From: a virus
Taxonomy: Duplodnaviria; Heunggongvirae; Uroviricota; Caudoviricetes
Strand: one strand, 5' to 3'
DNA length: 64,000 nucleotides
Virus record (IMG/VR): IMGVR_UViG_3300042889_001305
The first letter of the stretch is position 1, and each line of letters opens with the position of its first letter. Shown one piece after another: positions 2,220 through 46,858 of the stretch. The notes beneath the pieces were generated by a model. That model was given only the letters and a program-made list of their open reading frames with translations. It ran no database searches and was not told where the DNA came from. A program made the translations under genes and the position numbers.

Positions 2220-3854
2220 TTATGGTTTGTAAAATACAAAAATGGGTTCAAACTTATACGCTTTACCATCGTGTTTAACTGCGTTTTTAATACCGGTTTT
2301 AGATGGGTCTAATCCTACCATTCGGGTCATTAACATCTTCAATCTACCTTTATACTCACAACCTAATCCGGTTAGAATATCAATAGAATCTTGTTCCAAT
2401 GCATAATAGGTATCCTTACCAATTTTAATATCGGCTATGTTCCATAGAATGTATCTATCATTTTTAAGATAATCATAAATGGTAGTTAGAGTAGGACGTA
2501 AGAAGTTTTGTCTCCAATCCTCATATTCACCATATGCTTTGAATGATTGATTCTCATCTTGTGAATATTGTTCTCTATTAAAATATGGGGGTGATGTGAA
2601 TGCTAAATCCAATTTACCTGCATACTTTTGAAACTTAGGATTATGTTGAATCAACTCCGAGCCATCTTGAAATAACTCATAAGTGTTTGATTGTTTTTGA
2701 ACCTCAAAGAACTTACCAAATGTTTCTGAGTAATCATCTACACAATTTTTGTTATAGAAATCAGCCACATACTCATAACGTGAAATACCTAATTCCGGTA
2801 TAAAGTTATCAGGGTTCGGGTCAGTTCCAATGTAATGGGTTTTCTTACGAGAACTCATTGCACCTAATATTCTGCCACCCCATCCACTTGATGAATCATA
2901 AATGTGTAGGGGGTCTGATTGTTCAATATGTGAAGTGTAATGTTCGTATAACCACTTAGCAGTTAGTGCAGGGAAATTCACTGCAGGTTGACCACAACTT
3001 AAACGAAACACTTGTAATATCTTTGGAAAGATACCAATTGTCTTATCATACCAACGAATCAGATAGAAAAACTTTTTAACCGTCCCATCTTTTAAAGTGG
3101 TAGATGGTTCAATCGTTTTAATATTAGATAATTGAGTATGTGATAACCATCCCTTATCCTTACATTCTTGTACTTGTTCAGCAGTTAGGTATAGATTACC
3201 AAATCCAATATATTGTTCATTGATAGTACCATAATTATCTAAGGTATCCTCCTTTACTTTCGCAAGAACAATACCTATGTTTTCGTACTTACCAACGAAC
3301 ACTTTACCTTCATGTACTTTTTGTATAAATTCAATTCCAGTTTCACCATCCCAAAATTCATTCTCATCTTTCTTATTCACAATAGAACGTGACCACGAAT
3401 ACATAGAATCTTTCTTAACCGCCCTCTTCATTATATGAACGAAGGTATCTTCTAATTTCGGGTCTGAGAAATGGTCATAAATAGATAATCCACCTTCTGC
3501 TGATTTACCGATTGATATTTTGGTTTTCAACATAGTTGGAAAGAATTGATTTACGGCTGATGCATCTTTATTGAAGTTTTGTAAAATACCCAATGAGTTA
3601 TCATCTCCCGTCAAATCTTTTTGAAGGAAATCACAATCATTTGTTTTTAACTTTTTGAATGAATCGATTATATCATTCTTATCTTTTCCGATAACAGGAG
3701 GAACACCATCGGTATCCCATTGTTTAGTTACTTCTATGCGTAGTAACTTTGCCCAACTAATAAACTCATCATCAGTCATTTCTAATAACCGATGATAAGT
3801 TGTATTGGATTGGAATTCAGAAAATTTAGACCTTTCGTAATAGTGTTTACTCAT
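2220..3854 (-). CDS. SAM-dependent amino-methyltransferase-like protein (SPPY motif), paralog P1. About 300 aa of unknown N-terminal domain.
   Basis: Motif I-like YDSSSGWGGRILGA precedes motif IV DLAFTSPPYFNREQY, the gamma-type order of N6A/N4C methyltransferases. The C-terminus is similar to the products of 11339-12559 and 12564-13796. Confidence 0.6.
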   Translation of the reverse strand: MSKHYYERSKFSEFQSNTTYHRLLEMTDDEFISWAKLLRIEVTKQWDTDGVPPVIGKDKNDIIDSFKKLKTNDCDFLQKDLTGDDNSLGILQNFNKDASAVNQFFPTMLKTKISIGKSAEGGLSIYDHFSDPKLEDTFVHIMKRAVKKDSMYSWSRSIVNKKDENEFWDGETGIEFIQKVHEGKVFVGKYENIGIVLAKVKEDTLDNYGTINEQYIGFGNLYLTAEQVQECKDKGWLSHTQLSNIKTIEPSTTLKDGTVKKFFYLIRWYDKTIGIFPKILQVFRLSCGQPAVNFPALTAKWLYEHYTSHIEQSDPLHIYDSSSGWGGRILGAMSSRKKTHYIGTDPNPDNFIPELGISRYEYVADFYNKNCVDDYSETFGKFFEVQKQSNTYELFQDGSELIQHNPKFQKYAGKLDLAFTSPPYFNREQYSQDENQSFKAYGEYEDWRQNFLRPTLTTIYDYLKNDRYILWNIADIKIGKDTYYALEQDSIDILTGLGCEYKGRLKMLMTRMVGLDPSKTGIKNAVKHDGKAYKFEPIFVFYKP

Positions 3855-7868: not shown

Positions 7869-8708
7869 TTAAAATTTGTAAATTCCACCAATATTCCAGA
7901 ATAGAATAGTTCCTTCGATTTGGTCTATGTTTTCTTCTAACCACTTCCATTGCTTTACATCCCAAAATTGGTTGCAAGGGAATGGGGTTTCGTAACCATC
8001 TAATCTATTCTCAAATAGATACTCTGATTTTCGTATATTTAGGGGAATTGGAATCCCACTCTTTTTAAGTGTTTTATTGATTGAACTAACCGATGATACA
8101 CATGTTGTCCAAATCTTCTTTTTAACTTGTGGAAAAAACTCTTTAAGTTCCTCTCTATAATATCCTCTTGCTAATCCTGCAAGAGTTACACCACTACCAG
8201 ATGATACTACTAAATTATCAAAATGGGCAAGGGGTTGAATTCTATCTGCAAGATAATCTTTATAGAAATCGTGGTCAAAAGCGTAAGGTAACATTTGCCA
8301 TCCCCTTTCTCTTGCATCTTTCTTTAACGAATTATACATAATCTGCATCATATTAGGTCTAATTGGATATAGGTTTGTTTTAGGATGCATTTCCTTAATC
8401 ATTCTCAAATATTCCTGTGATATCTTTTTAGAATCAGGGTGTGCTGCATAAAATTCAATTCCCAATTCCTCACATATTGCACTCAATGCCCATGCTGTCC
8501 AACTACCATCTACGGAAAGGTGAACCAGTGGTTTTGATTTATCAATATATTTTTTAACCAATTCAAATAATGCTGCTAATTTACCCCACGGCGGTAATAT
8601 CATACCATCGCCCATCAAGTCATCCCTCTTTACCCATACTTCTCTACCCTTAATGTGATAAAGTTCTAATGGGGTATCTTCGGTTAATCCTTTTAGTTTT
8701 AAATCCAT
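7869..8708 (-). CDS. PLP-dependent enzyme, fold type II (ACC deaminase / D-cysteine desulfhydrase family), shortened
   Basis: TPLELYHIKGREVWVKRDDLMGDGMILPPWGKLAALFEL parallels E. coli DcyD TPLEYL..GREIFIKRDD......GNKLRKLEFL, placing the PLP lysine in WGK. The glycine loop VVSSGSGVTLAGLA parallels VVASGSAGTHAGLA. It is 279 aa against about 330 for the family. Confidence 0.7.
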   Translation of the reverse strand: MDLKLKGLTEDTPLELYHIKGREVWVKRDDLMGDGMILPPWGKLAALFELVKKYIDKSKPLVHLSVDGSWTAWALSAICEELGIEFYAAHPDSKKISQEYLRMIKEMHPKTNLYPIRPNMMQIMYNSLKKDARERGWQMLPYAFDHDFYKDYLADRIQPLAHFDNLVVSSGSGVTLAGLARGYYREELKEFFPQVKKKIWTTCVSSVSSINKTLKKSGIPIPLNIRKSEYLFENRLDGYETPFPCNQFWDVKQWKWLEENIDQIEGTILFWNIGGIYKF

Positions 8709-10204
8709 TGATATATTCCTCCTGAGTTTGACGTTAATTCTCCTTTCATTTTTCTATGAGAGAACCCGTGTATTTTTTCAAAGTTATCACCAATGACATG
8801 AATCATATTTTTTCTTTTCTTAAAATTAATAGATTCATCTTTTAAAATGATTTCTTCGATGTATTGTTTAAAATTTGTTCCTTTTTGAAATGCTCTTTTT
8901 TCCTGGTCTAAAATCTCATCAGGCAGTTTACCTCTGAATGCATTAGCAAGTGGTAATTTCCATTGACCTCCTTTAGATAAGTATTCATCGGTTAAATTAG
9001 TAGTATAGTTTAAAAATTCGGTATCAAAGAATGGGCATCTTAATTCGATTGTTCCATAATTCATAAAGATAGTATTACCTCTTAATAGGTTACCATAGTA
9101 TTGTTTTTCAAATAACTTTTTACGAACATCACTCCAATCTGGTTTCTTACTGAACATACGGAATGTACCATACGAACCATAGGATTCATCAGAACCCTCA
9201 CCACTAAATGCTACCTTAATACCATCTCTTGCCATTTGTTCTGCAATAAAGGATTGTAGGATACCCACTTCCATTTGAACGGTCGATGGATATTCGATTA
9301 CTCTAATTGAATCTAAAAATCTTTGTTTAATTATTTCTTCATCTTTAGGAACAAATACTTCAACTAACTCCACTCCTAAATACTCCGCACATACTCTTGC
9401 CTTTTGTAAATCCTTTGAGGTTTCATCAAATGCAATTGTGTATGCTTTTAGGTTTGGTATACGTTGTGATAGTAGGTAGGTAATGATTGCAGAATCAATC
9501 CCACCACTTAGTGATGTAGCAATTGGTACATCTGATAATAATCTTTTATCTACTGCAGTTTCTAATAACTTAAATGTAGTTTCACCAACTTCTTCATGTG
9601 ATGCCGGTATAGTAGGTTCGTTTGAGAATTGAAAATAATAATCTTTATGAACTACAATCGTATCAGTATTTAAATCAATTTCTACCAATGAATTCTTAGG
9701 TACAAACTTAATATCTGAACTCTTTACCTGTGTTGTAATGGATTTCAATTCACTAGCGATGATATAGTTGTTTGTATTGTGAATATAAAGGGGCAATTTA
9801 CCCACCCAGTCCCTCGATAGTATCAACTTATCATTATCGTATATAATGAATGAGAACATACCCTCTAATCTCTTTAATTCACCTTCCTTGTAAAGATATA
9901 GAATAATTTCTGAATCTGAATTAGATTTAAAGTGATACCCCCTTCCTTCGTATTCTTTACGCAATTGAGGATAGTTCCAAATCTCACCATTGACTACCAA
10001 TTCAACTCCATCCCATTCCATAGGTTGATTACCCAATGGTGAAGTATCGTTGATTGATAATCGGTTATGTCCTAAGATAATATGTTTATCGTTATATTGG
10101 AATTCTTTAATACCACGATTATCTCTACCACGATGCTCAATTGCTTCGAGCATTACATTCACATCATCTCTTTTATATCCAATCGTTGCTACAATTCCAC
10201 ACAT
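8699..10204 (-). CDS. Asparagine synthetase (glutamine-hydrolysing)-like amidotransferase
   Basis: The N-terminal MCGI carries the Cys2 nucleophile of class II glutamine amidotransferases. The PP-loop SLSGGIDSAIITYL is an ATP pyrophosphatase motif. 501 aa. Its stop overlaps the start of the PLP enzyme gene. Confidence 0.85.
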   Translation of the reverse strand: MCGIVATIGYKRDDVNVMLEAIEHRGRDNRGIKEFQYNDKHIILGHNRLSINDTSPLGNQPMEWDGVELVVNGEIWNYPQLRKEYEGRGYHFKSNSDSEIILYLYKEGELKRLEGMFSFIIYDNDKLILSRDWVGKLPLYIHNTNNYIIASELKSITTQVKSSDIKFVPKNSLVEIDLNTDTIVVHKDYYFQFSNEPTIPASHEEVGETTFKLLETAVDKRLLSDVPIATSLSGGIDSAIITYLLSQRIPNLKAYTIAFDETSKDLQKARVCAEYLGVELVEVFVPKDEEIIKQRFLDSIRVIEYPSTVQMEVGILQSFIAEQMARDGIKVAFSGEGSDESYGSYGTFRMFSKKPDWSDVRKKLFEKQYYGNLLRGNTIFMNYGTIELRCPFFDTEFLNYTTNLTDEYLSKGGQWKLPLANAFRGKLPDEILDQEKRAFQKGTNFKQYIEEIILKDESINFKKRKNMIHVIGDNFEKIHGFSHRKMKGELTSNSGGIYQWI

Positions 10205-10209
10205 ATTAT

Positions 10210-10632
10210 TTATTTTATATCAGCTTCTACGTCTTTTAAATTCATTTCTATCATTTTCAACTCATCATTTAACCAATCATATTTTCCAAATGCTATATCC
10301 TTTATCTTTGCATTGATTTCCCAACGTTGAATAATATCTCCTACTACATTTAATTCTAATAATTGAAACGAAATTGTATTAGTTTGTTTAGATTTATTTT
10401 CTGCTAATCCCTTGCAAATAATTGAAGCAATTGGAATTTCTGAAGTTTCATACATCTCAATTGTTAAATCACCCCAATTTACCCACCCATCATCATAAAC
10501 ACAAACTACTTTTAATTCACTCATTTTATGGACCGCATATGTTGGGATAACAAATGGGGAATTAAATTCAATTAAAAATCTATTTACTTTTTGTGGTTCA
10601 AATGCTACGAACTCTTGTTGTTCTTTTTTCAT
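10210..10632 (-). CDS. Hypothetical protein (140 aa)
   Basis: ATG start that overlaps the stop of the TS-like gene (translational coupling). No recognisable motif. Confidence 0.45.
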   Translation of the reverse strand: MKKEQQEFVAFEPQKVNRFLIEFNSPFVIPTYAVHKMSELKVVCVYDDGWVNWGDLTIEMYETSEIPIASIICKGLAENKSKQTNTISFQLLELNVVGDIIQRWEINAKIKDIAFGKYDWLNDELKMIEMNLKDVEADIK

Positions 10633-10633
10633 A

Positions 10634-11332
10634 TTATTTATTTAATACTTCTAATAACTTATGAGTCTTTTTCGTTTCATCATTCATTTTACCGATATGA
10701 CAAGAACAAGCTAAAACTGAAACTTTCCCTAACTCCATACCACTTTCTCTCGCTAAGAACTTACCCATCTCAACCAATGCAGTGTAATCTGCGTAACCTG
10801 ATTTGGATACTCTATTTGAACGAATGATTGATGTTAGGTAGATTTTACCACCACGAGGTTTAATATCAATCCCTAACATACAAGGTTGTGAGTATGGATT
10901 CCTAGCATCTCTGCTCGGGTCAAAGATAATCAATTCACATCTCTTAACTGCTTTACCAGTTTTAAGGATTTTAATTACATTTTCTACTTGATTAAATGTT
11001 CCTTGCCATGCAATCATTCTACCCCAATATGAATCATGCCAGTGGTCTTTAATGAATTTGTATTCCAATCCCTCTTCGGCTACAAAGAATGGGTTATCCG
11101 ATACCTTTGGTTGTGGTTCTAAGAAGGTTACGGTCTTTGCGTAATCAATTCTATCATCTCCCATAATTTCTCTAAAATGTGGGTCGAACCATTCATCAGA
11201 TTTAAATTCGGTGATTTCTGTCATTACGTTTAACTCTTCGGTTAAATCGCCTACCTTTACGCCATTGGCAATAAGGTGTTTAGATACCTTTACCCATGCA
11301 TCTCCCGGAGATGTTGCTTCTATAACTGTCAT
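10634..11332 (-). CDS. Thymidylate synthase-family enzyme (dNMP 5-hydroxymethylase/methylase-like), short form
   Basis: SQPCMLGIDIK carries the Pro-Cys nucleophile. KIYLTSIIRSNRVSKSGYADYTALVEM parallels TS [27 protein letters not shown], and VSVLACSCHI parallels the TS C-terminal block. It is 232 aa, shorter than ThyA and closer in size to phage dCMP/dUMP hydroxymethylases. Confidence 0.75.
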   Translation of the reverse strand: MTVIEATSPGDAWVKVSKHLIANGVKVGDLTEELNVMTEITEFKSDEWFDPHFREIMGDDRIDYAKTVTFLEPQPKVSDNPFFVAEEGLEYKFIKDHWHDSYWGRMIAWQGTFNQVENVIKILKTGKAVKRCELIIFDPSRDARNPYSQPCMLGIDIKPRGGKIYLTSIIRSNRVSKSGYADYTALVEMGKFLARESGMELGKVSVLACSCHIGKMNDETKKTHKLLEVLNK

Positions 11333-11338
11333 ATTATT

Positions 11339-12559
11339 TTATTTTATTTTTTTCCAAATCCAAATGGGTTCACCAAATGCATTATTTTTATTGAGTTCTG
11401 TTTTTTCTTTGAGTTCTTCTGCAAAATATTCAGATTTAGCATTTCCTGCACCGCCGGAATTAAACCTTTTTGTCATTTCCATTCCAATACAACCCATATA
11501 TTCTAATCCCTCTGATTTAATAAAGTCATTCATAGCATTTACAATATCAACATACCCCTTATCTGGTGCTGAAAATACATCTGCAATATTAACTGCTAAT
11601 AACCCACCCTTCTTTAAGGTAGGGATTATTTTTTTAATTGTTTTATGTAGGAAATTGGTATTCCAATCATCTATCTTTTTATAGCGTAAATAACTTTGAG
11701 TATCATGTGTGGAATACTTTTCAGTATTGAAGTATGGAGGTGAAGTGAAGATTGTATCAAAAAAGTTTTCATATTTGGAATAATCCACATCTTCTGCCGG
11801 TAACTTTATCAGTTCCACAGTTTTAGGATTCTCAAAAAACGTTTTGTGTTTCTGATAAAATTCTATTTGGTTTTCATAATTTGGGTGATTATCTAAATTA
11901 GGGTCTATACCAACATAATGTTTACCCGTTTCACTTGCAAAGAATCCACATAATCTATCTCCCCAACCTGCTGAAAAATCTAATATATTCTCACTTTGGA
12001 ATCTATCATAAAATGCTTTAGCAATTACAGGTTTGAATTGTGATGCCACATACTTTCGTAATGTAGTTGCCATCTTTAGTGTTTCCTTATTTACATCAGT
12101 TAGGACTTGTTCTAATGTGAAGAATGCCCGAACTATGGTTTTTATACCATTAACTGTCTGCCATGTCTTCCAACCTGATGGTGTTCTTGACCAATCTACC
12201 TTCCATCGATTTTCTATATGGAATGGGTTGGATGCGTTATTACCAACATTCGTTCTTTTAAAGTAATAATTACTACTATCAAATGTAAGTGGATATGCAG
12301 ATTCCCTTTCATTACGCGGAAACCATTCTCCCTCCACTAAAATATCCGGCCACCAAGTACCCTTTAACTTTTTATATGCATCAATCGTTTCTTGTTCTGT
12401 AATAATAGGAATAGGTGGTGGATAAGTATGTAATACTTCTGATAATGTTTCTACTATCTCTTCCTTTTCAAATGTATTTAGTATATGTTTCCACTCCTCC
12501 TTATCAATATTGATATAGGGGGTCATTCCATAAAACTTTTTGAAATATTCTTTTATCAT
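11339..12559 (-). CDS. SAM-dependent amino-methyltransferase-like protein (SPPY motif), paralog P2
   Basis: LDFSAGWGDRLCGFFA (motif I) and FTSPPYFNTEKY (motif IV). The N-terminus MIKEYFKKFYGMTPY matches the P3 N-terminus MYIEYFDKFYGMTPY. I therefore take the ATG at 12557-12559 rather than the track's TTG at 12667. AGGAAAA lies 12 nt upstream. Confidence 0.6.
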   Translation of the reverse strand: MIKEYFKKFYGMTPYINIDKEEWKHILNTFEKEEIVETLSEVLHTYPPPIPIITEQETIDAYKKLKGTWWPDILVEGEWFPRNERESAYPLTFDSSNYYFKRTNVGNNASNPFHIENRWKVDWSRTPSGWKTWQTVNGIKTIVRAFFTLEQVLTDVNKETLKMATTLRKYVASQFKPVIAKAFYDRFQSENILDFSAGWGDRLCGFFASETGKHYVGIDPNLDNHPNYENQIEFYQKHKTFFENPKTVELIKLPAEDVDYSKYENFFDTIFTSPPYFNTEKYSTHDTQSYLRYKKIDDWNTNFLHKTIKKIIPTLKKGGLLAVNIADVFSAPDKGYVDIVNAMNDFIKSEGLEYMGCIGMEMTKRFNSGGAGNAKSEYFAEELKEKTELNKNNAFGEPIWIWKKIK

Positions 12560-12563
12560 TAAA

Positions 12564-13796
12564 TTACATTTTCCTAAATACCCATACCGGTTCGCAGAAA
12601 GTTTTACCGGCATTTTCAATTGCCTTTTGCTTTTCTTCTTCGGAATATCGGTCTTCATCTCCCTCAATCATTGCACCTGCTCCAATTGAACCTGGCCTCT
12701 TAGCCATTTCCATACCTAAACATCCTTGATACTCTGCACCTTCTAATGTGGAAATAAAATCGTTCATTGGGTTAGTGATTTCCTGTTGACCTTTGCCATC
12801 ACCCTTTGAGGATGCATATACATCTGCGATATTAACTGCTAGATACCCACCCTTACGGATAGTAGGCCATACTTTTTCAATCGTTGCATGTAAGAATAAT
12901 TTATTCCATGCATCAATATTTTTATATCGAATCCAACTTTGAGTATCATCATATGAATATCTCTCTACGTTGAAATATGGTGGCGAACTGAATACAATAT
13001 CAAAGTAATCGGTATACTCACTATAATCCATATCCTCTGCGGGAGAACAATGAAAGGTTGCCCTCTTATCAGTTTCAAAAAAACCATTATTCTTTTTATA
13101 GAATTCGGCTTGTTTTTCGTATATTGGATGATTTTCTTTACGCGGGTCAATACCTACATAATGCTCACCATATTCTGATGCGAAAAATCCACATAATCTA
13201 TCACCCCATCCAGCAGAAATATCTAATACATTCTTTGCTTGAACGAAATCATAAAGTGCCTTTGCTACGTTTGGTTTGAACTGAGAACAAATATACTTTC
13301 TTAAAGATAGACAAGTTCTTAGGGTATTTTTACTAACCTCATCAAATTTTAGGGTATACATTCCACCGATTAGTGAAAACATAAAATCAGGGTTATTCCA
13401 AGTACGGAATGGGCCAGGCGATACTGTCCCATCTACGCTCCATCTATTTGCTTGTTGAAAATGATTCGATGCCCCATTACCAGTATTCAGCCTTCTTACA
13501 TATTGTTGTTTACCTTGAAATCCTAATGGATAACGGGTTTCAGATGCCTTACGAGGAAACCACTCACCTTCGGTTAGAAGTTCGTGATAACGAGTTCCTT
13601 TTAATTTAAGATACTCTTTTCTTGCATCCTCTTCAGAAATATCTGCATATGGTAATTCATATGTCATACATACTTTGGCAAGAGATTCCTTAACGTCTTC
13701 TCTTTGGTATGTTTTTTTAATGTGAGACCACTCTTCCTTACCGATATAAAGATATGGTGTCATACCATAAAATTTATCAAAATACTCTATATACAT
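12564..13796 (-). CDS. SAM-dependent amino-methyltransferase-like protein (SPPY motif), paralog P3
   Basis: LDISAGWGDRLCGFFA and FSSPPYFNVERY. It sits in tandem with P2 and is collinear with it over the whole length. ATG start, with a host-type promoter 36 nt upstream. Confidence 0.6.
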   Translation of the reverse strand: MYIEYFDKFYGMTPYLYIGKEEWSHIKKTYQREDVKESLAKVCMTYELPYADISEEDARKEYLKLKGTRYHELLTEGEWFPRKASETRYPLGFQGKQQYVRRLNTGNGASNHFQQANRWSVDGTVSPGPFRTWNNPDFMFSLIGGMYTLKFDEVSKNTLRTCLSLRKYICSQFKPNVAKALYDFVQAKNVLDISAGWGDRLCGFFASEYGEHYVGIDPRKENHPIYEKQAEFYKKNNGFFETDKRATFHCSPAEDMDYSEYTDYFDIVFSSPPYFNVERYSYDDTQSWIRYKNIDAWNKLFLHATIEKVWPTIRKGGYLAVNIADVYASSKGDGKGQQEITNPMNDFISTLEGAEYQGCLGMEMAKRPGSIGAGAMIEGDEDRYSEEEKQKAIENAGKTFCEPVWVFRKM

Positions 13797-17513: not shown

Positions 17514-18620
17514 TTACTCAAAAAATTGATTTATTTTTTCTTTCACTTCCGGTTTCACTTCTACACGGTTTCCTTTTATTGGTTTGCTAACCGGTCTGTT
17601 TTTTTCATATTCAATTCTTGTTTTCGAAATTTCAAAGTATTCTTTTTCTCTTTCAATACCAATAAAATCAAAACCACCTCTAATTGCTGCTTTACCAGTA
17701 CTTCCACTTCCCATAAACGGGTCTAATATCGTTCCATCGTTTTTAGTAACCAAACGAATAAGGTATAGCATCAAATCCGTTGGTTTGACAGTCGGGTGTG
17801 TGTTATTACTTCCTTCGTTTCTATCACTCTTTGATGTTTTAGGACAGTAGAAAAATCTACTAGCACCACCAACATCTCCCAATCCACCTAAATTTGCAGC
17901 TTTAACATCTAATGCATAGTTTCCATATTTACCGTTTTTGCCCAATTCTCCCATTGATTTATCCCCACTACCTCCTGGTGATTTTGATACTCCACTTTGT
18001 TCATCCAATAACCTACCTGCTTCTTCATCAAAGATTACATTTGCTGGAAATCTGCCTATTGTATCTGCTATGTTAGCGTTACTACTATCATAACCATCAT
18101 CTAATCCTGTCAATGAGGGTCTACCATTTGCTTTTGATTTATAATCACCATTAAGTTCAATCCTGCAACCATCTATGTTTATCCCACCAGTTCCCCATTC
18201 TAAAACATTCTCTGCTACTGTGCTTTCACTCAAAGGTTTTCTTGCCATTACAATAGGTTCATGTGCCGGTTTAAGAGCAGTTCCCCAACCTTGCCATTCT
18301 TCTAACTTATGTCCTATGTTATGTGATTTAGGAAACCCTGAACCATATATCCACATAATCTGGTCTCTAATCTCAAACCCTGCATCTTCAATTCTTACAG
18401 CCATTCTGTGATAAGTTCTACTACCCGCGAATGAAAGGATATGACCTCCTGGTTTTAGAACACGAAGGCATTCTTCCCATATCTGCTGTGATGGAACATC
18501 ATAATCCCAGTGTTTGCCCATAAATGCAAGTCCATATGGCGGGTCAGTAACAATACTATCCACCGAATTATCATCTAATTCTTTAAGTTTATCTAAACAA
18601 TCTCCTAGTAATAATTTCAT
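17514..18620 (-). CDS. DNA methyltransferase (N6-adenine or N4-cytosine, DPPY type)
   Basis: SIVTDPPYGLAF (motif IV) near the N-terminus, and DPFMGSGSTGKAA (motif I) near the C-terminus. This is the beta-class order of the N6_N4_Mtase family. 368 aa. Confidence 0.85.
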   Translation of the reverse strand: MKLLLGDCLDKLKELDDNSVDSIVTDPPYGLAFMGKHWDYDVPSQQIWEECLRVLKPGGHILSFAGSRTYHRMAVRIEDAGFEIRDQIMWIYGSGFPKSHNIGHKLEEWQGWGTALKPAHEPIVMARKPLSESTVAENVLEWGTGGINIDGCRIELNGDYKSKANGRPSLTGLDDGYDSSNANIADTIGRFPANVIFDEEAGRLLDEQSGVSKSPGGSGDKSMGELGKNGKYGNYALDVKAANLGGLGDVGGASRFFYCPKTSKSDRNEGSNNTHPTVKPTDLMLYLIRLVTKNDGTILDPFMGSGSTGKAAIRGGFDFIGIEREKEYFEISKTRIEYEKNRPVSKPIKGNRVEVKPEVKEKINQFFE

Positions 18621-21296: not shown

Positions 21297-22418
21297 TTAA
21301 TCATCCATTCCTGCACCTGATTCATCGATTTCCATATTTTCGATATCTAATGTATCTGATTTGTATTGTAATATCGTAGATTCACAAATCTTTTTATATA
21401 TTTGTTCTCTAACGTCAACCCTACTTTCCATCAAAGTAATGAAATCTTTAGATTGGAATTTAATAACTTCGCCACTTTCAGTATCAGTATATTCATACCA
21501 AGCACCTGCTTGTTTAACGATTTTATTATCTTTCATTACAACTAACCACGAACCATAGTTATCGATTCCTCTATCAAAGAAGATATCAAAATCGGCACAT
21601 CTTAATGGTGGGCCCATTCTATTCTTAACGACTTGAGCTCTTACTTTCATACCAACGATTTTATCGTTACCATTTACCTTCATCTTAATCTGTCCCATTC
21701 CTTTCAAACGTAATCTAACCGAAGCATGGAATGCTAAGGCTTTACCACCGGATGTAGTCCACGGGTCACCGAACGGCATTGCGTTCATTTTCTGACGAAG
21801 TTGGTTTGTATATACTAATAAGATTTTTTGTCTACCAATCATATTGGTAATCTTTCTCATCGCCTTTGAGATGATGATTGCTTTGTCAGTTGCATAGCCA
21901 TCTTTACCATAATCAGAAGCCAACTCCGTTTTAGTGGATGCTGCTGCTACTGAATCGGTTACAATTACTACTAACCTGTCTTTGTCTGTCTGTCTAACTT
22001 TCTCAATAATAGTTTCAGTAAAATCAAAAATTTGTTCAACTGAGTCTGCTGATACATAAAGTAATTTCTTTACATCCACACCGATTGCTTCAAGAAATTC
22101 TCTACTCACTGCAGTTTCAGTATCTATTAACACTGCAACACCACCTTGCTTTTGTGTTTCAGCAAGGATGTGTGCAGATACTAATGATTTTCCACTTTGT
22201 TCTAATCCTGTTATCTCAACAATTCTACCAACAGGCAATCCACCATAAGGACGATTTGAAATCGCAACATCTAATGTAGCACATCCGGTTGATACCCAAC
22301 CCTCTACGTTTGTAGGAGTCGCATCATCATCTAAGAAGAATGCTACTTTTTGGTCTTTAGATTGTTTATTTAGCTCACTCGCTAGAATATCGGCTAAATC
22401 CAATTCCTGTTTTGCCAT
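21297..22418 (-). CDS. RecA/UvsX-family recombinase
   Basis: Walker A GLEQSGKS within VGRIVEITGLEQSGKSLVSAHILAE. 373 aa. Lies beside the SSB gene. Confidence 0.85.
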   Translation of the reverse strand: MAKQELDLADILASELNKQSKDQKVAFFLDDDATPTNVEGWVSTGCATLDVAISNRPYGGLPVGRIVEITGLEQSGKSLVSAHILAETQKQGGVAVLIDTETAVSREFLEAIGVDVKKLLYVSADSVEQIFDFTETIIEKVRQTDKDRLVVIVTDSVAAASTKTELASDYGKDGYATDKAIIISKAMRKITNMIGRQKILLVYTNQLRQKMNAMPFGDPWTTSGGKALAFHASVRLRLKGMGQIKMKVNGNDKIVGMKVRAQVVKNRMGPPLRCADFDIFFDRGIDNYGSWLVVMKDNKIVKQAGAWYEYTDTESGEVIKFQSKDFITLMESRVDVREQIYKKICESTILQYKSDTLDIENMEIDESGAGMDD

Positions 22419-25088: not shown

Positions 25089-25559
25089 TTATTTTGCCCA
25101 TTTACCATTAGAAACTATTTGTGCAATAATTCCATATACTGATAGGTCTTGAAAGGTATCTTCTATTGATTCCCCAACTGAATCCTCTTTACTTAGGACT
25201 ACCAATTGTTTTAATCTTTGGATTTTATCGTTCATTCTAAACCATAATCCCGTTAGTGATAATTTCTTATCCTCAGCAGTTTCTAATTTAGTACCAACCG
25301 AAATATTGTTTGGGCCGTAGTTTGATTGTTTTAGACAAAACAATTCGTATTGAGTAAACATAAGTCGTTTAAACTCATCCGTCATTTCTGGATATTCTTT
25401 TTCGACCTGTTCTATGATTTTGGGATTATCATATTTGATAAATGCAACCTCATCATCTTTAGTCTCCAATTTAGGAGCGATGTTCATTTGAAGTTGATTC
25501 TTCACCTGTTGGCCTATAATCTTAGGGCCACTTGATTGTGGGGGTGTGTTTTTTGCCAT
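25089..25559 (-). CDS. Hypothetical protein (156 aa)
   Basis: ATG start. A host-type promoter lies 28 nt upstream. Confidence 0.45.
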   Translation of the reverse strand: MAKNTPPQSSGPKIIGQQVKNQLQMNIAPKLETKDDEVAFIKYDNPKIIEQVEKEYPEMTDEFKRLMFTQYELFCLKQSNYGPNNISVGTKLETAEDKKLSLTGLWFRMNDKIQRLKQLVVLSKEDSVGESIEDTFQDLSVYGIIAQIVSNGKWAK

Positions 25560-29093: not shown

Positions 29094-29759
29094 TTATTTT
29101 TGTTTGAATTTAAACCCTGTTAGTTTTTCAATATCCGAAACCTCTACTTTATTATTATTTATACCATCTGGTTTAGATAAGTCGTTCTCAAATAAAAACG
29201 CAAACCATTCTTTATTTCTAACTACATAAAAAACTTTCCAACATTGTGTCGGTACGGAAATCTTTCCTATCTTTTTTAACTCACCCACATTTCCTGCCCA
29301 CACATGAACGGAATCTGATATTAGAGCAACATCTCTTGTTAGGGTTTCTAAGGATTTCCAATCTCCCGCATTTAATCTATGGTATTGTGCTACCATATTT
29401 GAATAATAGAAACTTTCATCTTGTATCGCCGGAGTTTGACATTGATTTGATTTTGCCGGCATTAGATGACCTCTATCAAATCCACTTCCTACATAATCGT
29501 TTCCAATATTGGTTTCGTTTGGTAAAAGGGGGTCGGGTTTAAAATTATCTTTACGTGGAATTGGATTTGGACAACCAATTTTTGCTTTGGTTTCCCACCA
29601 TTCTACTAAGACAGGATATCTTTTTGATTTACTAAAGTGTGAGGTGTAATTTGTGTGTTTTAAAACCACTACATCTTGTGCGAATGTTACAATTGTAACG
29701 AATGATAGCATCAACGTCATTAACGTAATCCCCACTATTGTTCCTAAATTTTTTCTCAT
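29094..29759 (-). CDS. Exported non-specific DNA/RNA endonuclease (beta-beta-alpha-Me, Serratia/EndoG family)
   Basis: N-terminal signal peptide MRKNLGTIVGITLMTLMLSFVTIVTFAQD. It carries the DRGH motif as GSGFDRGHLMPA. 221 aa. Confidence 0.75.
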   Translation of the reverse strand: MRKNLGTIVGITLMTLMLSFVTIVTFAQDVVVLKHTNYTSHFSKSKRYPVLVEWWETKAKIGCPNPIPRKDNFKPDPLLPNETNIGNDYVGSGFDRGHLMPAKSNQCQTPAIQDESFYYSNMVAQYHRLNAGDWKSLETLTRDVALISDSVHVWAGNVGELKKIGKISVPTQCWKVFYVVRNKEWFAFLFENDLSKPDGINNNKVEVSDIEKLTGFKFKQK

Positions 29760-31528: not shown

Positions 31529-32440
31529 TTATTGGATATTTTTAAACATTTGTGGAACTTGCCCATAGACCGGTAATTTACCATCCCATTTGTTAATATA
31601 TTCCAATTGTAACAACAATGGTGTTAGAGTTACTTGCTTCATTCGATTTGATTCCGCTTCTGCCTTTGCAGAGGTTAACATTGCCTGTGCATTACCTTCC
31701 GCAGTTGCTACTTTAATCTTCGCTTGTGCTTCAGCAGTTTTCACTTCGTTCTCTGCTCTTAATGCTGCTTGAACTGCGTTGTTCTTAGCTTCGATTGAAC
31801 GTTTGAATGTTTCTGGATAAATCAAATTCGATGTGAACTGATTAATTGTAAATCCCTCTTTTAATAATTGTCCATCTAATAACCTACGAACTTCAATTTC
31901 AAATATTGCTCTATTTGAGATTAACTCATCTGCGGTATATTTGTTAGTTGCTAATCTGAATGCATCATACACTGCTGTTTTTAAAAAGCCTTCCTCAATA
32001 TCTTCCAAAGGTCTACGATACTTAGAAAATATTGCCGGAACTTTATCCCTCTGAACTGAATAGTTCATAATCGGAGATACGTTAAATTCAGAACCATCCT
32101 TACTATTTACAATGAATGAATTTTCACCTTTGTATTCCTTATGTTGAATGAATGTAGGGAACTCATAAATCTTAGTTGTAATTGGATTATAGAATACCAT
32201 ACCGGTAACTGCTACTACATCATCCACCCCTTTGTTATCACCATATTGGTTTACTTTAACACCAACATATCCTGCATCAATTCTTTCACATGAATTGAAT
32301 AATACTACTAATAGGATAAATCCTAATACACCTGCACTAATTGCTTTAATCATTTTTTTGATTTTTAATTGTTTGTTTAATTTATATTCTTCAATCTCTT
32401 TTTGTCTTAGAGCTTGATAATCCGTATCATATACTGCCAT
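31529..32440 (-). CDS. SPFH / band-7 (stomatin/prohibitin/HflC-like) membrane protein
   Basis: One N-terminal TM helix (ISAGVLGFILLVVLF), then an SPFH-like core and an Ala/Glu/Lys-rich coiled-coil (AVQAALRAENEVKTAEAQAKIKVATAEGNAQAML). Confidence 0.7.
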   Translation of the reverse strand: MAVYDTDYQALRQKEIEEYKLNKQLKIKKMIKAISAGVLGFILLVVLFNSCERIDAGYVGVKVNQYGDNKGVDDVVAVTGMVFYNPITTKIYEFPTFIQHKEYKGENSFIVNSKDGSEFNVSPIMNYSVQRDKVPAIFSKYRRPLEDIEEGFLKTAVYDAFRLATNKYTADELISNRAIFEIEVRRLLDGQLLKEGFTINQFTSNLIYPETFKRSIEAKNNAVQAALRAENEVKTAEAQAKIKVATAEGNAQAMLTSAKAEAESNRMKQVTLTPLLLQLEYINKWDGKLPVYGQVPQMFKNIQ

Positions 32441-34997: not shown

Positions 34998-35729
34998 TTA
35001 TATTTGTAGGTATATATACTCTGAAAACTCCTTATTTCCATTGGGTGAAAGATGCCAATCTCCATTATTTAATTCAGAATCACAAGTCCACCCTTTATTT
35101 ATGGTTAATTCTCGTAAATTTGTTAAAGCCGGTTCAATATATTTCCTAATATTATCACCCATTAATTTATCCCATGATAATAATAATGTTGATATATTAT
35201 TTTTTTTATCATCAATACCTTTTAAAGTATAGTATGTTGATAAAATAGAATTTCGTTGTAAAAATATTTCATTTGATAATTTTTTATTGAATATATTACA
35301 AAAGGTAGTTAACTCCGCATCGTAATATGGATATTCTTCATTAAAGTTTCTATGAGGTGAAAACGGAACAATTGAATTCAGGTCATTTTTTTTTAAAATT
35401 GAATGCTGAAATGCTATTCTATTCCAATAGGTTAATTGAAAAATTATTAGTGAATCATCATATATTTCACGAGGTAATCTATCTCCATATAGTTCTATTT
35501 GCTTATCATTATTAGGATGCGGAAATTCTAATTTAGAATTTATACAATTTAAATAATATAAATTTTCAATGTTTGAACTACCATTTATTGAATAGTTGTA
35601 TACATTTTTAGCTGATATATTTAACTTATCCGCTAACAAATCTACATATGATTTGCAATTAGGGTCAATAGAATTGGTATTTAACGAATGAGAACACCCA
35701 AAAATATATAAATGTTTGTATTTATTCAC
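34998..35729 (-). CDS. Hypothetical protein, weakly SGNH/GDSL-hydrolase-like
   Basis: The N-terminal LYIFGCSHSLNT resembles GDSL block I with Asp replaced by Cys. GTG start. Low confidence. Confidence 0.35.
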   Translation of the reverse strand: MNKYKHLYIFGCSHSLNTNSIDPNCKSYVDLLADKLNISAKNVYNYSINGSSNIENLYYLNCINSKLEFPHPNNDKQIELYGDRLPREIYDDSLIIFQLTYWNRIAFQHSILKKNDLNSIVPFSPHRNFNEEYPYYDAELTTFCNIFNKKLSNEIFLQRNSILSTYYTLKGIDDKKNNISTLLLSWDKLMGDNIRKYIEPALTNLRELTINKGWTCDSELNNGDWHLSPNGNKEFSEYIYLQI

Positions 35730-36498
35730 CCCAATACTTTTGTCTTAATTCGTACATATCAATTGCCTCTCTTTTCATTTGATTTCCAGCATGAAAATAT
35801 GCACCTTCTTTAAGATAACCACCTAAGAAATTTCTTCTCATTCTATTAGGGTCTTTATTTGGTTCTGACCCATGTACTACATGTGAGTGTAAAAGTGCAA
35901 CTTGTCCTTTTTTCAAATACCCTTCTATCTTACGGAAATCATGCCCTTCTGGCATTACACAACTTTTACCTCTCTCACTTCTCCAGTTATCGGTATTTGT
36001 TGCTTTTCTTTCTTCGTTATCTTCGATTGGTAAAACCGGTAATCTATGTGAACCTTCATAGTTCCATACTGCACCATTTTCAGGGTCGTGATTATCTAAT
36101 GCCAATGCAGTGTTGATAATTTCATTGTGTCCACAACCAGTATAGAATGCATTTTGATGTTGGTCTCTACCCAATTCGCCCTTTGGTTTGTAATAACCCC
36201 AAGTTTGTAATCCAACAACTCCACCTTCCATTAGGAATTCTGCTGCTTCTAAAATTTTTGGATGTGAAAATAATTTAGCTATTTTTTCTGATTCTCTATG
36301 TGGATACATAATGGGTTCGAACTCTTGCCATTTTCCTGGTTCTTTTTCATTACGTTCTACACGTAAACGGTCTAATTCTTCGTTGATTTCATCTACTTCT
36401 GCTTCGGTTAATAATTCCAAAACTGTGAAGCCTCGGTATCTCCAATCAAATGACATTTGTTGAAGTTCTTCCGTTGTAAGGTGTTTGTATTTTTGCAT
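35722..36498 (-). CDS. Fe(II)/2-oxoglutarate-dependent dioxygenase, PhyH (phytanoyl-CoA dioxygenase) family
   Basis: HQNAFYTGCGH and ALLHSHVVHGSEPN...R fit the PhyH HxD/E...H...R arrangement. 258 aa. Confidence 0.6.
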   Translation of the reverse strand: MQKYKHLTTEELQQMSFDWRYRGFTVLELLTEAEVDEINEELDRLRVERNEKEPGKWQEFEPIMYPHRESEKIAKLFSHPKILEAAEFLMEGGVVGLQTWGYYKPKGELGRDQHQNAFYTGCGHNEIINTALALDNHDPENGAVWNYEGSHRLPVLPIEDNEERKATNTDNWRSERGKSCVMPEGHDFRKIEGYLKKGQVALLHSHVVHGSEPNKDPNRMRRNFLGGYLKEGAYFHAGNQMKREAIDMYELRQKYWGE

Positions 36499-46369: not shown

Positions 46370-46858
46370 TTAGAATTCAAGTATTGCATAATCGTAAGCT
46401 AACGTTAATGTAATCTCTGCAGGGTCATTTGATGTCCAATCTAATTCACCAAATTGTGCGTTTAAGATAAATGCACCTTTAAGTTTCCAGTTTTCAATTT
46501 TATCACCTACTGGTCCTAACATATAGATATCAATATCTTTTTTGTAGAAATCTGCATATCCATCACGTCCTGTTAGGGATTCATGTGAAGTTCTAACCCA
46601 CTCCATTACTGCCTGTGCACCTGATGGTACGATTGGGTCATATAATGTGATTTCTAAATCTTGCCATTCACCTTTACCTTTCAACTTTCTTTTTAAGTTG
46701 ATGTGTTCTAATGTTACAGCTTCAAACTGAATGTTTGGTCTGTTACCTGCTTTGATAAGATATGAAGGGATACCAGCGATTTCCATGATGAAACGATTTT
46801 TCATCTTTGGTTCAAAGTTGGTATAGAACATTTCGTTAAACTCTAATATTTCTGCCAT
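46370..46858 (-). CDS. Tail tube protein, putative
   Basis: 162 aa, immediately downstream of the sheath gene. AGGAGAAAATAAAA precedes the ATG. Confidence 0.55.
   Translation of the reverse strand: MAEILEFNEMFYTNFEPKMKNRFIMEIAGIPSYLIKAGNRPNIQFEAVTLEHINLKRKLKGKGEWQDLEITLYDPIVPSGAQAVMEWVRTSHESLTGRDGYADFYKKDIDIYMLGPVGDKIENWKLKGAFILNAQFGELDWTSNDPAEITLTLAYDYAILEF

Follow-up and report, generated by a model that had tools for sequence, protein, structure and literature searches.

A short thymidylate synthase-like protein with a candidate role in cytosine hypermodification, encoded in a conserved gene cassette of marine large phages

In the literature we retrieved, phage cytosine modifications are all built on a 5-methyl, 5-hydroxymethyl or 5-hydroxy group, with sugars or carbamoyl groups as further additions. 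Amino-acid-derived hypermodifications have so far been documented for thymidine. In phage M6, gp52 is a PLP decarboxylase of C-alpha-glycinylthymidine, an amino-acid adduct in DNA, and unexplained amidoligase and glutaminotransferase genes have been noted in metavirome clusters (PMC8989533). For enzymes of the thymidylate synthase (TS) superfamily, published residue rules relate sequence to substrate and product. Positions 177 and 147 (E. coli numbering, which we use for all alignment positions) discriminate cytosine-modifying enzymes, and cytosine-modified contigs, from ordinary TS in metaviromes (PMC8670742). The N177D rule for cytosine specificity is restated in a study in which the Leu143 position correlates with a methyl versus hydroxymethyl product, an acidic residue at this position is typical of hydroxymethylases, and D169N is the signature of flavin-dependent 5-hydroxy-dCMP synthases (PMC13326640).

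Here we describe a TS-like gene in a 64,000-nucleotide stretch of tailed-phage DNA, which is the whole stretch that we analysed and is referred to as the window. The gene and its key codons are as follows.

10634..11332, minus strand: TS-fold enzyme of 232 aa with an ATG start; its predicted role is C5 activation on a cytosine nucleotide
10880..10882, minus strand: codon of Cys151, the catalytic nucleophile (equivalent to E. coli Cys146), after Pro150, as placed by alignments
10787..10822, minus strand: motif R171-S-N-R174-V-S-K177-S-G-Y-A-D182, from ungapped profile alignments and clade statistics
10813-10811, minus strand: codon of Arg174
10789-10787, minus strand: codon of Asp182

A search of a 5.8-billion-protein set returned 228 homologues at E≤1e-3, and the 120 matches listed share 67–99% identity and equal length; on sequence grounds, the gene is a real one. 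The original prediction had reported a short TS-fold enzyme with a Pro-Cys nucleophile. Its length and the quoted peptides are exact (YSQPCML, residues 147–153, and RSNRVSKSGYADYTAL, residues 171–186), and 232 aa is not unusual among non-canonical members of the family: T4 gp42 has 246 aa, the deposited AfhB chains have 234–238 aa and the TIGR03283 model has 201 positions. Pfam PF00303 matches only residues 101–214 (E 6e-4), and its score of 19.5 bits lies below the gathering threshold of 24.3 bits, while the PHROG thymidylate synthase family matches at 1.5e-9. Judged by these profile matches, the homology to TS is well above chance despite the Pfam score. The AlphaFold2 model (pLDDT 92) is confidently assigned the TS alpha/beta fold, as Foldseek aligns it to many TS chains with a probability of 1.00 and TM scores of 0.55–0.70. 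The three top PDB matches, MilA, AfhB and T4 dCMP hydroxymethylase (probability 1.00, E 8e-12, TM 0.70), are cytosine-specific members of the family. The pair Pro150-Cys151 aligns with E. coli P145-C146, which bears out the predicted nucleophile.

The curated family that matches best is NCBIfam TIGR03283 (thy_syn_methano; E 7e-18, residues 99–214), which brings up the reading as an ordinary short methanogen-type TS that supplies dTMP for phage replication. Moreover, JGI pipelines name the homologues 'thymidylate synthase', and the gene adjoins ribonucleotide reductase. However, the protein scores 64.8 bits, far under the curated cut-off of 174.55 bits, and N177, D169, H147 and Y209 are all replaced. 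Short relatives with D169 and N177 form a separate class; two of them, P0139 and P0146, keep both residues (RGHDFGRKAYAN) and are tentatively taken as methanogen-type TS from their sequences. The conserved cassette described below would have no place in dTMP synthesis, and we regard this reading as very improbable.

A megablast search with 8 kb around the gene found no close relatives among sequenced phages. By DNA polymerase, the nearest cultured phage is Microcystis phage Mel-JY01 (51%), from which the cassette is absent. The TS-like family is frequent in ocean metagenomes, Tara samples included, on contigs of up to 288 kb.

To map the active site, we used profile alignments, which are ungapped over the motif region for MilA, AfhB and S. 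aureus TS and likewise, as HMMER local alignments, for E. coli ThyA and T4 dCMP hydroxymethylase (reference sequences of the last two confirmed identical to PDB 1aob_A and 1b49_A). All five place Asp182 on E. coli Asn177 and T4 Asp179, and intermediate homologues place it on E. coli Asn177 as well. This upholds the earlier assignment of an Asp to the pyrimidine-specificity position, for which a conserved Asn in a gapped alignment was the possible counter-evidence. A forced global hhalign alignment to E. coli TS gives a gapped alternative at 17% probability, with Gly179, not Asn, at position 177; since residues 174–186 contain no Asn at all, no alignment can put a conserved Asn there. The forced global alignments to single TS sequences, of low confidence and gapped for E. 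coli and meaningless for T4, were discarded, and we relied on the HMMER local alignments instead.

By these alignments, most of the residues with which a mononucleotide enzyme binds phosphate are kept. R171 and S172 correspond to the phosphate-binding R166 and S167 of E. coli and are conserved, K130 and R131 correspond to R126 and R127, and His212 aligns with H207. E. coli His147 is Met152 here and Met or Leu in relatives, and Tyr209, which contacts the 3'-OH, is replaced by Gly; the sugar specificity, and even a mononucleotide as substrate, are thus not secure. The N-terminal 100 residues have no sequence alignment to TS, so that Arg21, Glu58 and Trp80 of E. coli have no assigned equivalents, and HMMER aligns Trp103, not the invariant Tyr102, with the catalytic Tyr94.

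The most conspicuous departures lie on the folate side. The Asp that contacts the pterin of folate (E. coli D169, T4 D171) is Arg174 in our protein, K177 and S178 take the places of L172 and G173, so that Gly173 becomes Ser, and the Leu143 position is occupied by Ser148, a residue that is neither hydrophobic nor, across relatives, consistently acidic. With Arg174 and this Ser, the protein does not match the published signatures of TS, dCMP hydroxymethylase or 5-hydroxy-dCMP synthase (PMC13326640). We aligned 237 short TS relatives, among which the catalytic Cys is kept in 229 and the preceding Pro in 236, and position 143 is S in 128, G in 30, D in 16, H in 15 and E in 12. The clade of the window protein comprises the 145 members with Arg or Ala at position 169 (Arg 135, Ala 10). 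All 145 have Asp at position 177 and Lys at position 172, and Lys-Ser is invariant at the Leu172/Gly173 positions. Since both Arg and Ala occur at position 169, this residue is dispensable and would not be a new ligand. The sister classes carry D169 with N177 and D169 with D177. Asn at position 169 was found in three of the 237 relatives, all of which have Asn177 and fall outside the clade.

These residues bear directly on a classical folate-dependent route, in which a T4 gp42-like dCMP hydroxymethylase or an XP12-like dCMP methylase would use CH2-THF to form 5-hydroxymethyl- or 5-methyl-dCMP, and modification of that base on DNA would fall to the neighbouring enzymes. This was the reading of the original prediction. 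Our protein has in common with T4 gp42 an Asp at position 177 and a motif that opens with RSN, the best structural matches include T4 dCMP hydroxymethylase and MilA, and the nucleotide-metabolism setting fits; a non-hydrophobic residue at position 143 argues against a plain methyl product by the published rule (PMC13326640). However, every clade member has Arg or Ala instead of the folate Asp (also Asp in MilA), and Gly173 is Ser, whereas all aligned members with experimentally established folate dependence keep Asp169. Only one natural loss is known, D169N, and it accompanies a change to flavin (PMC13326640); position 143 is Ser instead of the acidic residue typical of hydroxymethylases. In addition, at BLAST sensitivity the window and the fetched loci hold no homologue of the 5-hmdU DNA kinase, the known enzyme that activates the hydroxymethyl group, and the ORFs scanned include no glycosyltransferase. 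Thus, of the original prediction, the cytosine-type Asp at the specificity position stands (Asp182, to which Met152 adds a second cytosine-type position), and a CH2-THF-made 5-hydroxymethyl or 5-methyl product is disfavoured by Arg174, by Ser in place of Gly173 and by Ser at position 143. We consider the classical route unlikely, though worth keeping in view; folate use through another binding mode in the clade is possible. The loss of the folate Asp was absent from the earlier account.

Another conceivable route is flavin-dependent: a 5-hydroxy-dCMP synthase of the RB69 gp48 or HY126 AfhB kind would provide 5-hydroxycytosine, to which further groups could be attached. By both fold and profile, AfhB (9iqu/9iqc) ranks second among the PDB matches, its length is similar, and Asp169 and Gly173 are missing in both AfhB and the clade. 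Against this, the diagnostic D169N does not occur in the clade, where all 145 members carry Arg or Ala, and position 143 is not Glu. The window ORFs scanned hold no glycosyltransferase or NDP-sugar genes, and an amidotransferase, a PLP decarboxylase and a radical SAM enzyme have no role in known 5-hydroxycytosine pathways (PMC13326640). A synthase of this type is improbable here.

In the window, the TS-like gene lies among candidate base-modification genes, between ribonucleotide reductase and DNA polymerase. The neighbours considered are listed below.

8699..10204, minus strand: AsnB-type glutamine amidotransferase, 501 aa, with an N-terminal Cys2 glutaminase and a PP-loop synthetase domain
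7869..8708, minus strand: fold-type II PLP enzyme, 279 aa, homologue of M6 gp52 (phrog_7093, 1e-23)
11339..12559, minus strand: SPPY amino-methyltransferase-like paralogue 1 (the listed ORF extends to 12667 from a TTG)
12564..13796, minus strand: SPPY amino-methyltransferase-like paralogue 2, 410 aa, with a class I SAM-methyltransferase domain
2220..3854, minus strand: SPPY amino-methyltransferase-like paralogue 3, 544 aa
10210..10632, minus strand: ORF of 140 aa that separates the TS-like gene from the AsnB-like gene
25089..25559, minus strand: DUF1599 protein (Pfam 'Nucleotide modification associated domain 1'; 27.3 bits, cut-off 25)

The AsnB-type protein keeps the MCGIV start, SGGIDS and SGEGSDE. 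With 282.6 bits against a cut-off of 267.1 bits for TIGR01536, it clears NCBI's threshold for asparagine synthase, and a metabolic role is in principle conceivable. Its substrate would be either aspartate or a carboxylate attached to the base. The PLP enzyme aligns with M6 gp52 (YP_001294560) over 96% of its length at 25% identity (tblastn, E 4e-16), and its Lys43 and GSG loop align with the PLP lysine and corresponding loop of 1j0a. Homologues of M6 gp51, gp53, gp54 and gp55 were not found by tblastn in the window or the fetched loci, where neither the 5-hmdU DNA kinase nor aGPT-Pplase gave a hit at E≤1. Likewise, no radical SAM enzyme was detected in the window by HMM, and the unannotated neighbours contain no CxxxCxxC motif.

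The SPPY proteins have the features of class I SAM-methyltransferases, with motif I (D192/G196/G198), motif II (D217) and S271-P-P-Y274 invariant. Paralogues 1 and 2 are 51% identical, residues 1–410 of the latter corresponding to residues 37–441 of the former, and by this alignment the likely start of paralogue 1 is the ATG at 12559. Ahead of its methyltransferase domain, paralogue 2 has a unique N-terminal domain of ~170 aa. Foldseek returned only generic class I methyltransferases for the model, Trm11 among them, and no identification for the N-terminal domain. Scores against Pfam N6_N4_Mtase lie near the threshold (17–27 bits versus 26.7). The methyl group could go to adenine N6 or cytosine N4 in DNA, as with exocyclic-amine DNA methyltransferases, or to an amine or amide on a new side chain. 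With 2856 versus about 276 matches, the SPPY family is ~10 times larger than the TS-like clade and is not exclusive to the cassette. The DUF1599 protein is a possible further member of the nucleotide-modification programme.

The 140-aa ORF, weakly similar to the tail-tube gene of the window (E 9e-5), was rejected as a cassette member: it occurs only in the window and two close relatives and is missing from loci L011 and L014. It is probably a lineage-specific insert.

Across ten independent viral or island lineages (39–54% identity), one of them an Ignavibacteria integrative island, the TS-like gene occurs with the same kinds of partner: SPPY amino-methyltransferase-like proteins, an adenylating amidotransferase of the AsnB type, and an M6 gp52 homologue or else a B12-like radical SAM enzyme. 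In all lineages whose contigs extend far enough on the flank, an AsnB orthologue or a synthetase-only homologue adjoins the TS-like gene. Natural fusions join the TS-like protein to radical SAM, and radical SAM to the methyltransferase-like protein. In several lineages, the cassette lies within phage replication and nucleotide-metabolism modules, whereas the island version is accompanied by a ParB-like gene. Of the three window paralogues, SPPY paralogue 3 is nearest to the cassette methyltransferase of the island. A single-protein search of genome contigs yielded an Ignavibacteria MAG as its sole match, and the literature searched on this gene combination returned only general hypermodification papers, with no description of it. 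The setting agrees with the earlier suggestion of a modified-base pathway in place of plain dTMP synthesis.

A further question is whether the substrate is a DNA precursor at all. CMP, leading to a MilA-like small-molecule or nucleoside product, RNA, or a pyrimidine already in DNA would be alternatives. CMP-specific MilA is the top match, Tyr209 is replaced by Gly, the target of M6 gp52, to which the neighbouring PLP enzyme is homologous, is DNA, and the cassette methyltransferases have DNA-methylase-type motifs, with the ParB-like gene in the island version pointing the same way. On the other hand, the phosphate-binding Arg171, Ser172 and Lys130 are kept, and the cassette resides in replication and nucleotide-metabolism modules of several phage lineages. 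So far as we know, every TS-fold enzyme that has been characterised uses free mononucleotides. We give the reading with a substrate outside the DNA precursors a small chance of being correct.

Thus, we propose, with a probability of roughly 0.55, that the TS-like protein activates C5 of a cytosine nucleotide as the first step of an undescribed cytosine hypermodification in marine large phages. Its substrate would be a mononucleotide of cytosine, with dCMP the likeliest. Cys151 would add to C6 of the pyrimidine, Asp182 would read and protonate N3/N4 of the cytosine, and the activated C5 would then take on a substituent. As Asp169 is replaced by Arg or Ala and Leu172/Gly173 by Lys-Ser, the second substrate is probably not classically bound methylene-tetrahydrofolate. 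In the conserved four-part cassette, the TS-like enzyme would come first, the AsnB-type adenylating amidotransferase would convert a carboxylate to an amide, the third part would be a PLP decarboxylase of the M6 gp52 type (the case in this window) or else a radical SAM enzyme of the B12-like kind, and at least one SPPY N-methyltransferase-like protein would complete the set. Between them, these enzymes would give the cytosine of phage DNA a side chain, amino-acid-like or with a carboxyl group, and tailor it; the order of the steps, and which of them take place on the nucleotide and which on DNA, are part of the proposal. The modified cytosine would presumably serve evasion of host nucleases. 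Among the points against this pathway, the attachment of an amino-acid-like group is unexplained, with no BLAST-level M6 5-hmdU DNA kinase or aGPT-Pplase in the window and the fetched loci, and the decarboxylase and the amidotransferase would compete for a single carboxylate.

A bolder and rather doubtful version is that the clade adds a fourth functional class to the TS superfamily, one that combines Cys-C6 activation of cytosine with a non-folate anionic co-substrate, while the cassette amidates, decarboxylates and N-methylates the product. The clade-specific Lys177 and Ser178 (and Arg174) would hold the co-substrate, for which a SAM-derived 3-amino-3-carboxypropyl group, PLP-bound aminoacrylate, glyoxylate and a radical-SAM-delivered carboxymethyl group are candidates. 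Such a pathway would be a DNA-base counterpart of the diphthamide or ncm5U pathway, and its product would be a cytosine hypermodification of a new, amino-acid-derived kind in abundant large phages of the sea.

The clade can be recognised by its residue signature, Asp177 with Arg/Ala169 and Lys172, and the four-gene cassette is directly clonable and testable. If our proposal is true, TS-superfamily chemistry would reach past folate and flavin, and a new modified base would join the DNA repertoire. It might explain why some marine virome DNA is unread or restriction-resistant and would offer new enzymes for DNA labelling.

Compared with described TS-family proteins, the closest curated family is the methanogen-type TS (TIGR03283), which is likewise compact and without the long TS C-terminus; however, the score is far under the family cut-off and the methanogen-type enzymes have no cassette. 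The CMP 5-hydroxymethylase MilA (PDB 5JNH/5B6D) is the best match overall (phmmer 5e-4, profile 3e-9, Foldseek 8e-12, TM 0.70) and shares Asp at position 177 as well as Lys-Arg where E. coli TS has Arg126-Arg127. Whereas our protein has lost the folate-side residues, MilA has Asp169 ('RAND'), Gly173 and Asp at position 143, is 325 aa long and belongs to a Streptomyces antibiotic pathway.

The 5-hydroxy-dCMP synthases (RB69 gp48, DLP3 gp80 and HY126 AfhB; PDB 9IQU/9IQC) are also short phage TS homologues with Asp177. They too have lost Asp169 and Gly173 and are a precedent for loss of Asp169 on leaving folate chemistry. However, they carry Asn169 and Glu143, in contrast to Arg/Ala169 in the TS-like clade and Ser at position 143 in the window protein, and they work with arabinosyl or glycosyl transferases, none of which were found in the neighbourhood of the TS-like gene. 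T4 gp42 (PDB 1B49/1B5E) resembles our protein in its TS fold, Cys nucleophile, 'RSN' start and length of ~240 aa, with T4 D179 equivalent to D182, and is a gene of the phage replication module that feeds a modified cytosine. The two proteins share only 14–15% identity, T4 D171, G175 and D145 correspond to Arg174, Ser and Ser, and the Tyr of T4 'HVY' is Gly; moreover, our gene has no glucosyltransferases beside it and has other partner enzymes.

On the pathway level, the thymidine hypermodification cluster of phage M6 (gp51-gp54; PMC8989533) has a gp52-type PLP enzyme and a similar logic, in which a TS-family enzyme gives a C5-modified pyrimidine that PLP and radical SAM enzymes tailor. Unlike M6, our loci have no BLAST-level 5-hmdU DNA kinase, aGPT-Pplase or SPL-like radical SAM enzyme, and the predicted base is cytosine, not uracil or thymine. 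Whereas the radical SAM and PLP enzymes of M6 catalyse consecutive steps, they are alternatives here, and an AsnB-type enzyme and SPPY methyltransferases are added to the set.

We estimate a probability of roughly 55% that the thymidylate synthase (TS)-like protein of the window carries out the first, cytosine C5-modifying step of a new hypermodification cassette. Its gene (10634-11332, minus strand) has an ATG start and a 232-aa product, with YSQPCML at residues 147-153 and RSNRVSKSGYADYTAL at residues 171-186; the ORF and both peptides quoted in the original prediction were reproduced exactly. Searching a collection of 5.8 billion proteins yielded 228 homologues (E<=1e-3). The 120 listed among them are 67-99% identical and of equal length; their contigs, from JGI, ENA, Logan and Tara assemblies, reach 288 kb. 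The gene is real and conserved.

The sequence signal for TS homology is weak, and the structural signal of the predicted model is clear. Pfam PF00303 scored 19.5 bits (threshold 24.3), the PHROG thymidylate synthase family matched at 1.5e-9, and the methanogen-type NCBIfam TIGR03283 at 7e-18 (64.8 bits, cut-off 174.55). An AlphaFold2 model built from 29 family sequences reached a mean pLDDT of 92, and Foldseek matched it to TS-family PDB chains with a probability of 1.00, bearing out the proposed TS fold. The top match was the CMP hydroxymethylase MilA (E 8e-12, TM 0.70), followed by the HY126 dCMP hydroxylase AfhB, T4 dCMP hydroxymethylase (gp42) and then ordinary TS. Among viral predicted structures, none was nearer than 20% identity.

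To map the active site, we used family-profile alignments with five references: MilA, AfhB, S. aureus TS, E. coli ThyA and T4 gp42. The ThyA and gp42 sequences were verified as identical to PDB 1aob_A and 1b49_A.

Equivalent residues of the window protein, E. coli ThyA and, where given, T4 gp42
K130 / R131: ThyA R126 / R127
S148: ThyA L143, gp42 D145
C151: ThyA C146
M152: ThyA H147
R171 / S172: ThyA R166 / S167
R174: ThyA D169, gp42 D171
K177 / S178: ThyA L172 / G173
D182: ThyA N177, gp42 D179
H212: ThyA H207
G214: ThyA Y209

All five alignments are ungapped over the motif (MilA rANDafrgavsD, AfhB rSQNcavvmqlD, S. aureus TS rSADiflgvpfN, and RSNDVVFGFRND in T4 gp42). Two remoter short relatives, whose motifs read RGHDFGRKAYAN and RSHDFGRKAYGN, have the Asp as well as the Asn anchor in an unchanged register, which confirms the ungapped alignment through intermediates. 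The original prediction of an Asp at the N177 position is therefore upheld. It had named as its refutation a gapped or structural alignment placing a conserved Asn there, together with plain TS activity; forced global hhalign gave a gapped alternative (17% probability) that still has no Asn at position 177, and residues 174-186 contain none. The TS fold is present, the nucleophile and phosphate site are intact, and the specificity residue is of the cytosine type. A plain TS would share the fold and nucleophile and carry Asn at 177; we regard this reading as very improbable.

In ThyA numbering, N177D confers cytosine specificity, a methyl product accompanies hydrophobic Leu143 and a hydroxymethyl product Asp/Glu143, and D169N marks flavin-dependent 5-hydroxy-dCMP synthases (PMC13326640). 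Independently, in a metavirome association study, 177 and 147 ranked as the two positions separating cytosine-modified from unmodified contigs (PMC8670742). At 177 the window protein is in the cytosine state, and at 147 it lacks His. Position 169 is neither Asp nor Asn and position 143 neither hydrophobic nor acidic, so that the protein falls outside all three described functional classes. A flavin-dependent hydroxylase, for which the AfhB match could speak, is thus improbable at a residue 169 that is not Asn.

Residue classes are sharply separated among 237 aligned short-TS relatives: 145 have Arg/Ala169, every one with Asp177 and Lys172, 46 combine Asp169 with Asn177, and 21 Asp169 with Asp177. 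The window protein belongs to the 145-member clade. D169, L172, G173 and F176, which we take to be TS folate contacts, are all replaced in the window protein (4/4, for the alignable half only), and it lacks the long C-terminus with which TS closes over folate. The classical folate ligands are lost, and by analogy with the D169N enzymes the co-substrate has likely changed. A classical folate-dependent dCMP hydroxymethylase or methylase, in keeping with Asp182 and the MilA and T4 matches and at odds with the replaced contacts, is a possible but doubtful alternative.

Retention of the phosphate-binding residues favours a mononucleotide substrate. With Gly at the Tyr209 position, sugar preference is not fixed by sequence. 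That the substrate is not a DNA precursor at all, as the CMP enzyme MilA might suggest, is unlikely for a gene lying in a phage replication region.

The cytosine-modifying reading draws on the neighbourhood, where the cassette sits between reductase and polymerase, its genes separated by a few bases or overlapping.

Cassette region of the window, all on the minus strand
12564-13796: methyltransferase-like
11339-12559: methyltransferase-like paralogue (listed from 12667)
10634-11332: TS-like gene
10210-10632: 140-aa ORF
8699-10204: AsnB-type amidotransferase
7869-8708: PLP enzyme
2220-3854: third methyltransferase-like paralogue, past the polymerase

The window (~33% G+C, a single coding strand) covers replication and structural functions of a phage, with ribonucleotide reductase, thioredoxin, family B DNA polymerase, DnaB-like helicase, flap endonuclease, RecA-like, gp32-like, canonical N6/N4 DNA methylase (17514-18620), baseplate and tail-tube genes. 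Terminator-like sites show no excess over chance. The nearest cultured phage, Microcystis phage Mel-JY01 (polymerase 51% identical), is without the cassette. The 140-aa ORF was set aside as a probable insert, since no more than two close relatives share it with the window. It faintly resembles tail-tube gene 46370-46858 of the window (phmmer E 9e-5) and may be a duplicated fragment or small mobile insert.

Elsewhere on the minus strand, a 156-aa protein (25089-25559) matches Pfam DUF1599, 'Nucleotide modification associated domain 1', over cut-off (27.3 bits) and may belong to the same nucleotide-modification programme. A PhyH-family Fe(II)/2-oxoglutarate dioxygenase-like protein (35722-36498, E 5e-15), overlapping an unannotated 243-aa ORF (34998-35729) by a few bases, could be metabolic or an additional modifying enzyme. 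A 450-aa protein (865-2217) without matches in Pfam, PHROGs or NCBIfam lies directly downstream of the third methyltransferase-like gene, as in relative L014 (81% identity). Further genes encode a bacterial-type RecA match (Pfam, 21297-22418), an SPFH/Band 7 protein (31529-32440) and a non-specific DNA/RNA endonuclease (Endonuclease_NS, 29094-29759); in a phage that modifies its own DNA, such a nuclease would be consistent with breakdown of host DNA.

The AsnB-type protein exceeds the TIGR01536 cut-off, and its N-terminal Cys, PP-loop (SGGIDS) and SGEGSDE motif are all intact. The PLP enzyme is homologous over its full length to Pseudomonas phage M6 gp52 (25% identity, 96% of length covered, E 4e-16; phrog_7093, 1e-23), with Lys43 and the glycine loop aligned to the 1j0a PLP site. 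M6 gp52 demonstrably decarboxylates C-alpha-glycinylthymidine in DNA to 5-aminoethyl-dU (PMC8989533). No homologue of the M6 5-hmdU DNA kinase, aGPT-Pplase or SPL-like radical SAM was found at BLAST level. In the methyltransferase-like proteins motif I is invariant, motif II acidic and SPPY present; they are modelled with a class I methyltransferase domain after a unique N-terminal domain. This unrecognised domain (~170 aa) is common to the three paralogues in the window; relatives L011 and L014 have a single copy beside the TS-like gene. For the first paralogue, the listed TTG start at 12667 overlaps the upstream gene, and alignment with its paralogue suggests ATG at 12559 as the true start.

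We compared ten lineages whose TS-like proteins share 39-54% identity with that of the window. Besides the window group (L005-L022), they comprise an Ignavibacteria MAG island flanked by an integrase (L002/L028), IMG/VR contigs L023-L026 and, from metagenomes, contigs L003 and L030-L032. On every sufficiently long contig, an SPPY methyltransferase-like gene, an AsnB-type enzyme and one further enzyme accompany the TS-like gene. A full-length AsnB-type enzyme that includes the glutaminase domain is found in the window, L023 and L031; the remaining lineages have a synthetase-only form (~290 aa). Seven lineages have a B12-like radical SAM protein as the further enzyme and three a gp52-like PLP enzyme (window group, L026, L030); none of the ten has both. 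Fusions of TS-like protein to radical SAM (P0125, on L032) and of radical SAM to methyltransferase-like protein (L024) physically link cassette parts. Linkage of the TS-like gene to amidotransferase, N-methyltransferase-like protein and PLP decarboxylase or radical SAM is tight and ancient.

The Ignavibacteria integrative island places the cassette outside lytic phages too, where it may be a mobile element's module for self-modification. There, a ParB-like protein with a DGRSR motif (L002 7396-8565, L028 5345-6562), encoded next to an HTH gene and a tyrosine integrase, precedes the cassette. The L031 cassette has been invaded by mobile nucleases: a 178-aa protein (8825-9361) with DUF723 and a weak PvuRts1I-like N-terminal match lies between the TS-like and AsnB-like genes, with IS605 OrfB/TnpB just upstream. 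On L030 (1-4259), four consecutive ADP-ribosyltransferase-toxin-like (ADPrib_exo_Tox) paralogues lie a few kb upstream of the PLP-type cassette.

In the proposed mechanism, Cys151 would add to C6 of dCMP, Asp182 would protonate N3 of cytosine, and the electrophile attacked by C5 would not be CH2-THF bound as in TS. The new substituent would bear a carboxylate and/or alpha-amino-acid function, since AsnB-type enzymes activate carboxylates by adenylation and gp52-type enzymes require a free alpha-amino acid. Amidation, decarboxylation and N-methylation of this side chain could follow, either on the nucleotide or once it is in DNA. Some points do not fit: the scheme does not account for the attachment of a carboxyl- or amino-acid-like group to the base, decarboxylase and amidotransferase would compete for a single carboxylate, and the methyltransferase-like family is ~10x the size of the TS-like clade.

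A full-text literature search of incomplete coverage, amounting to absence of evidence only, returned no description of this gene combination. The TS-like enzyme is predicted to share the first half-reaction of T4 gp42, MilA and AfhB, yet it departs from each of these families at a defining residue, and it scores under the cut-offs of curated TS families. With thymidine hypermodification clusters, the cassette has one enzyme type and the overall logic in common. However, it is missing their kinase and transferase, and its predicted target is cytosine.
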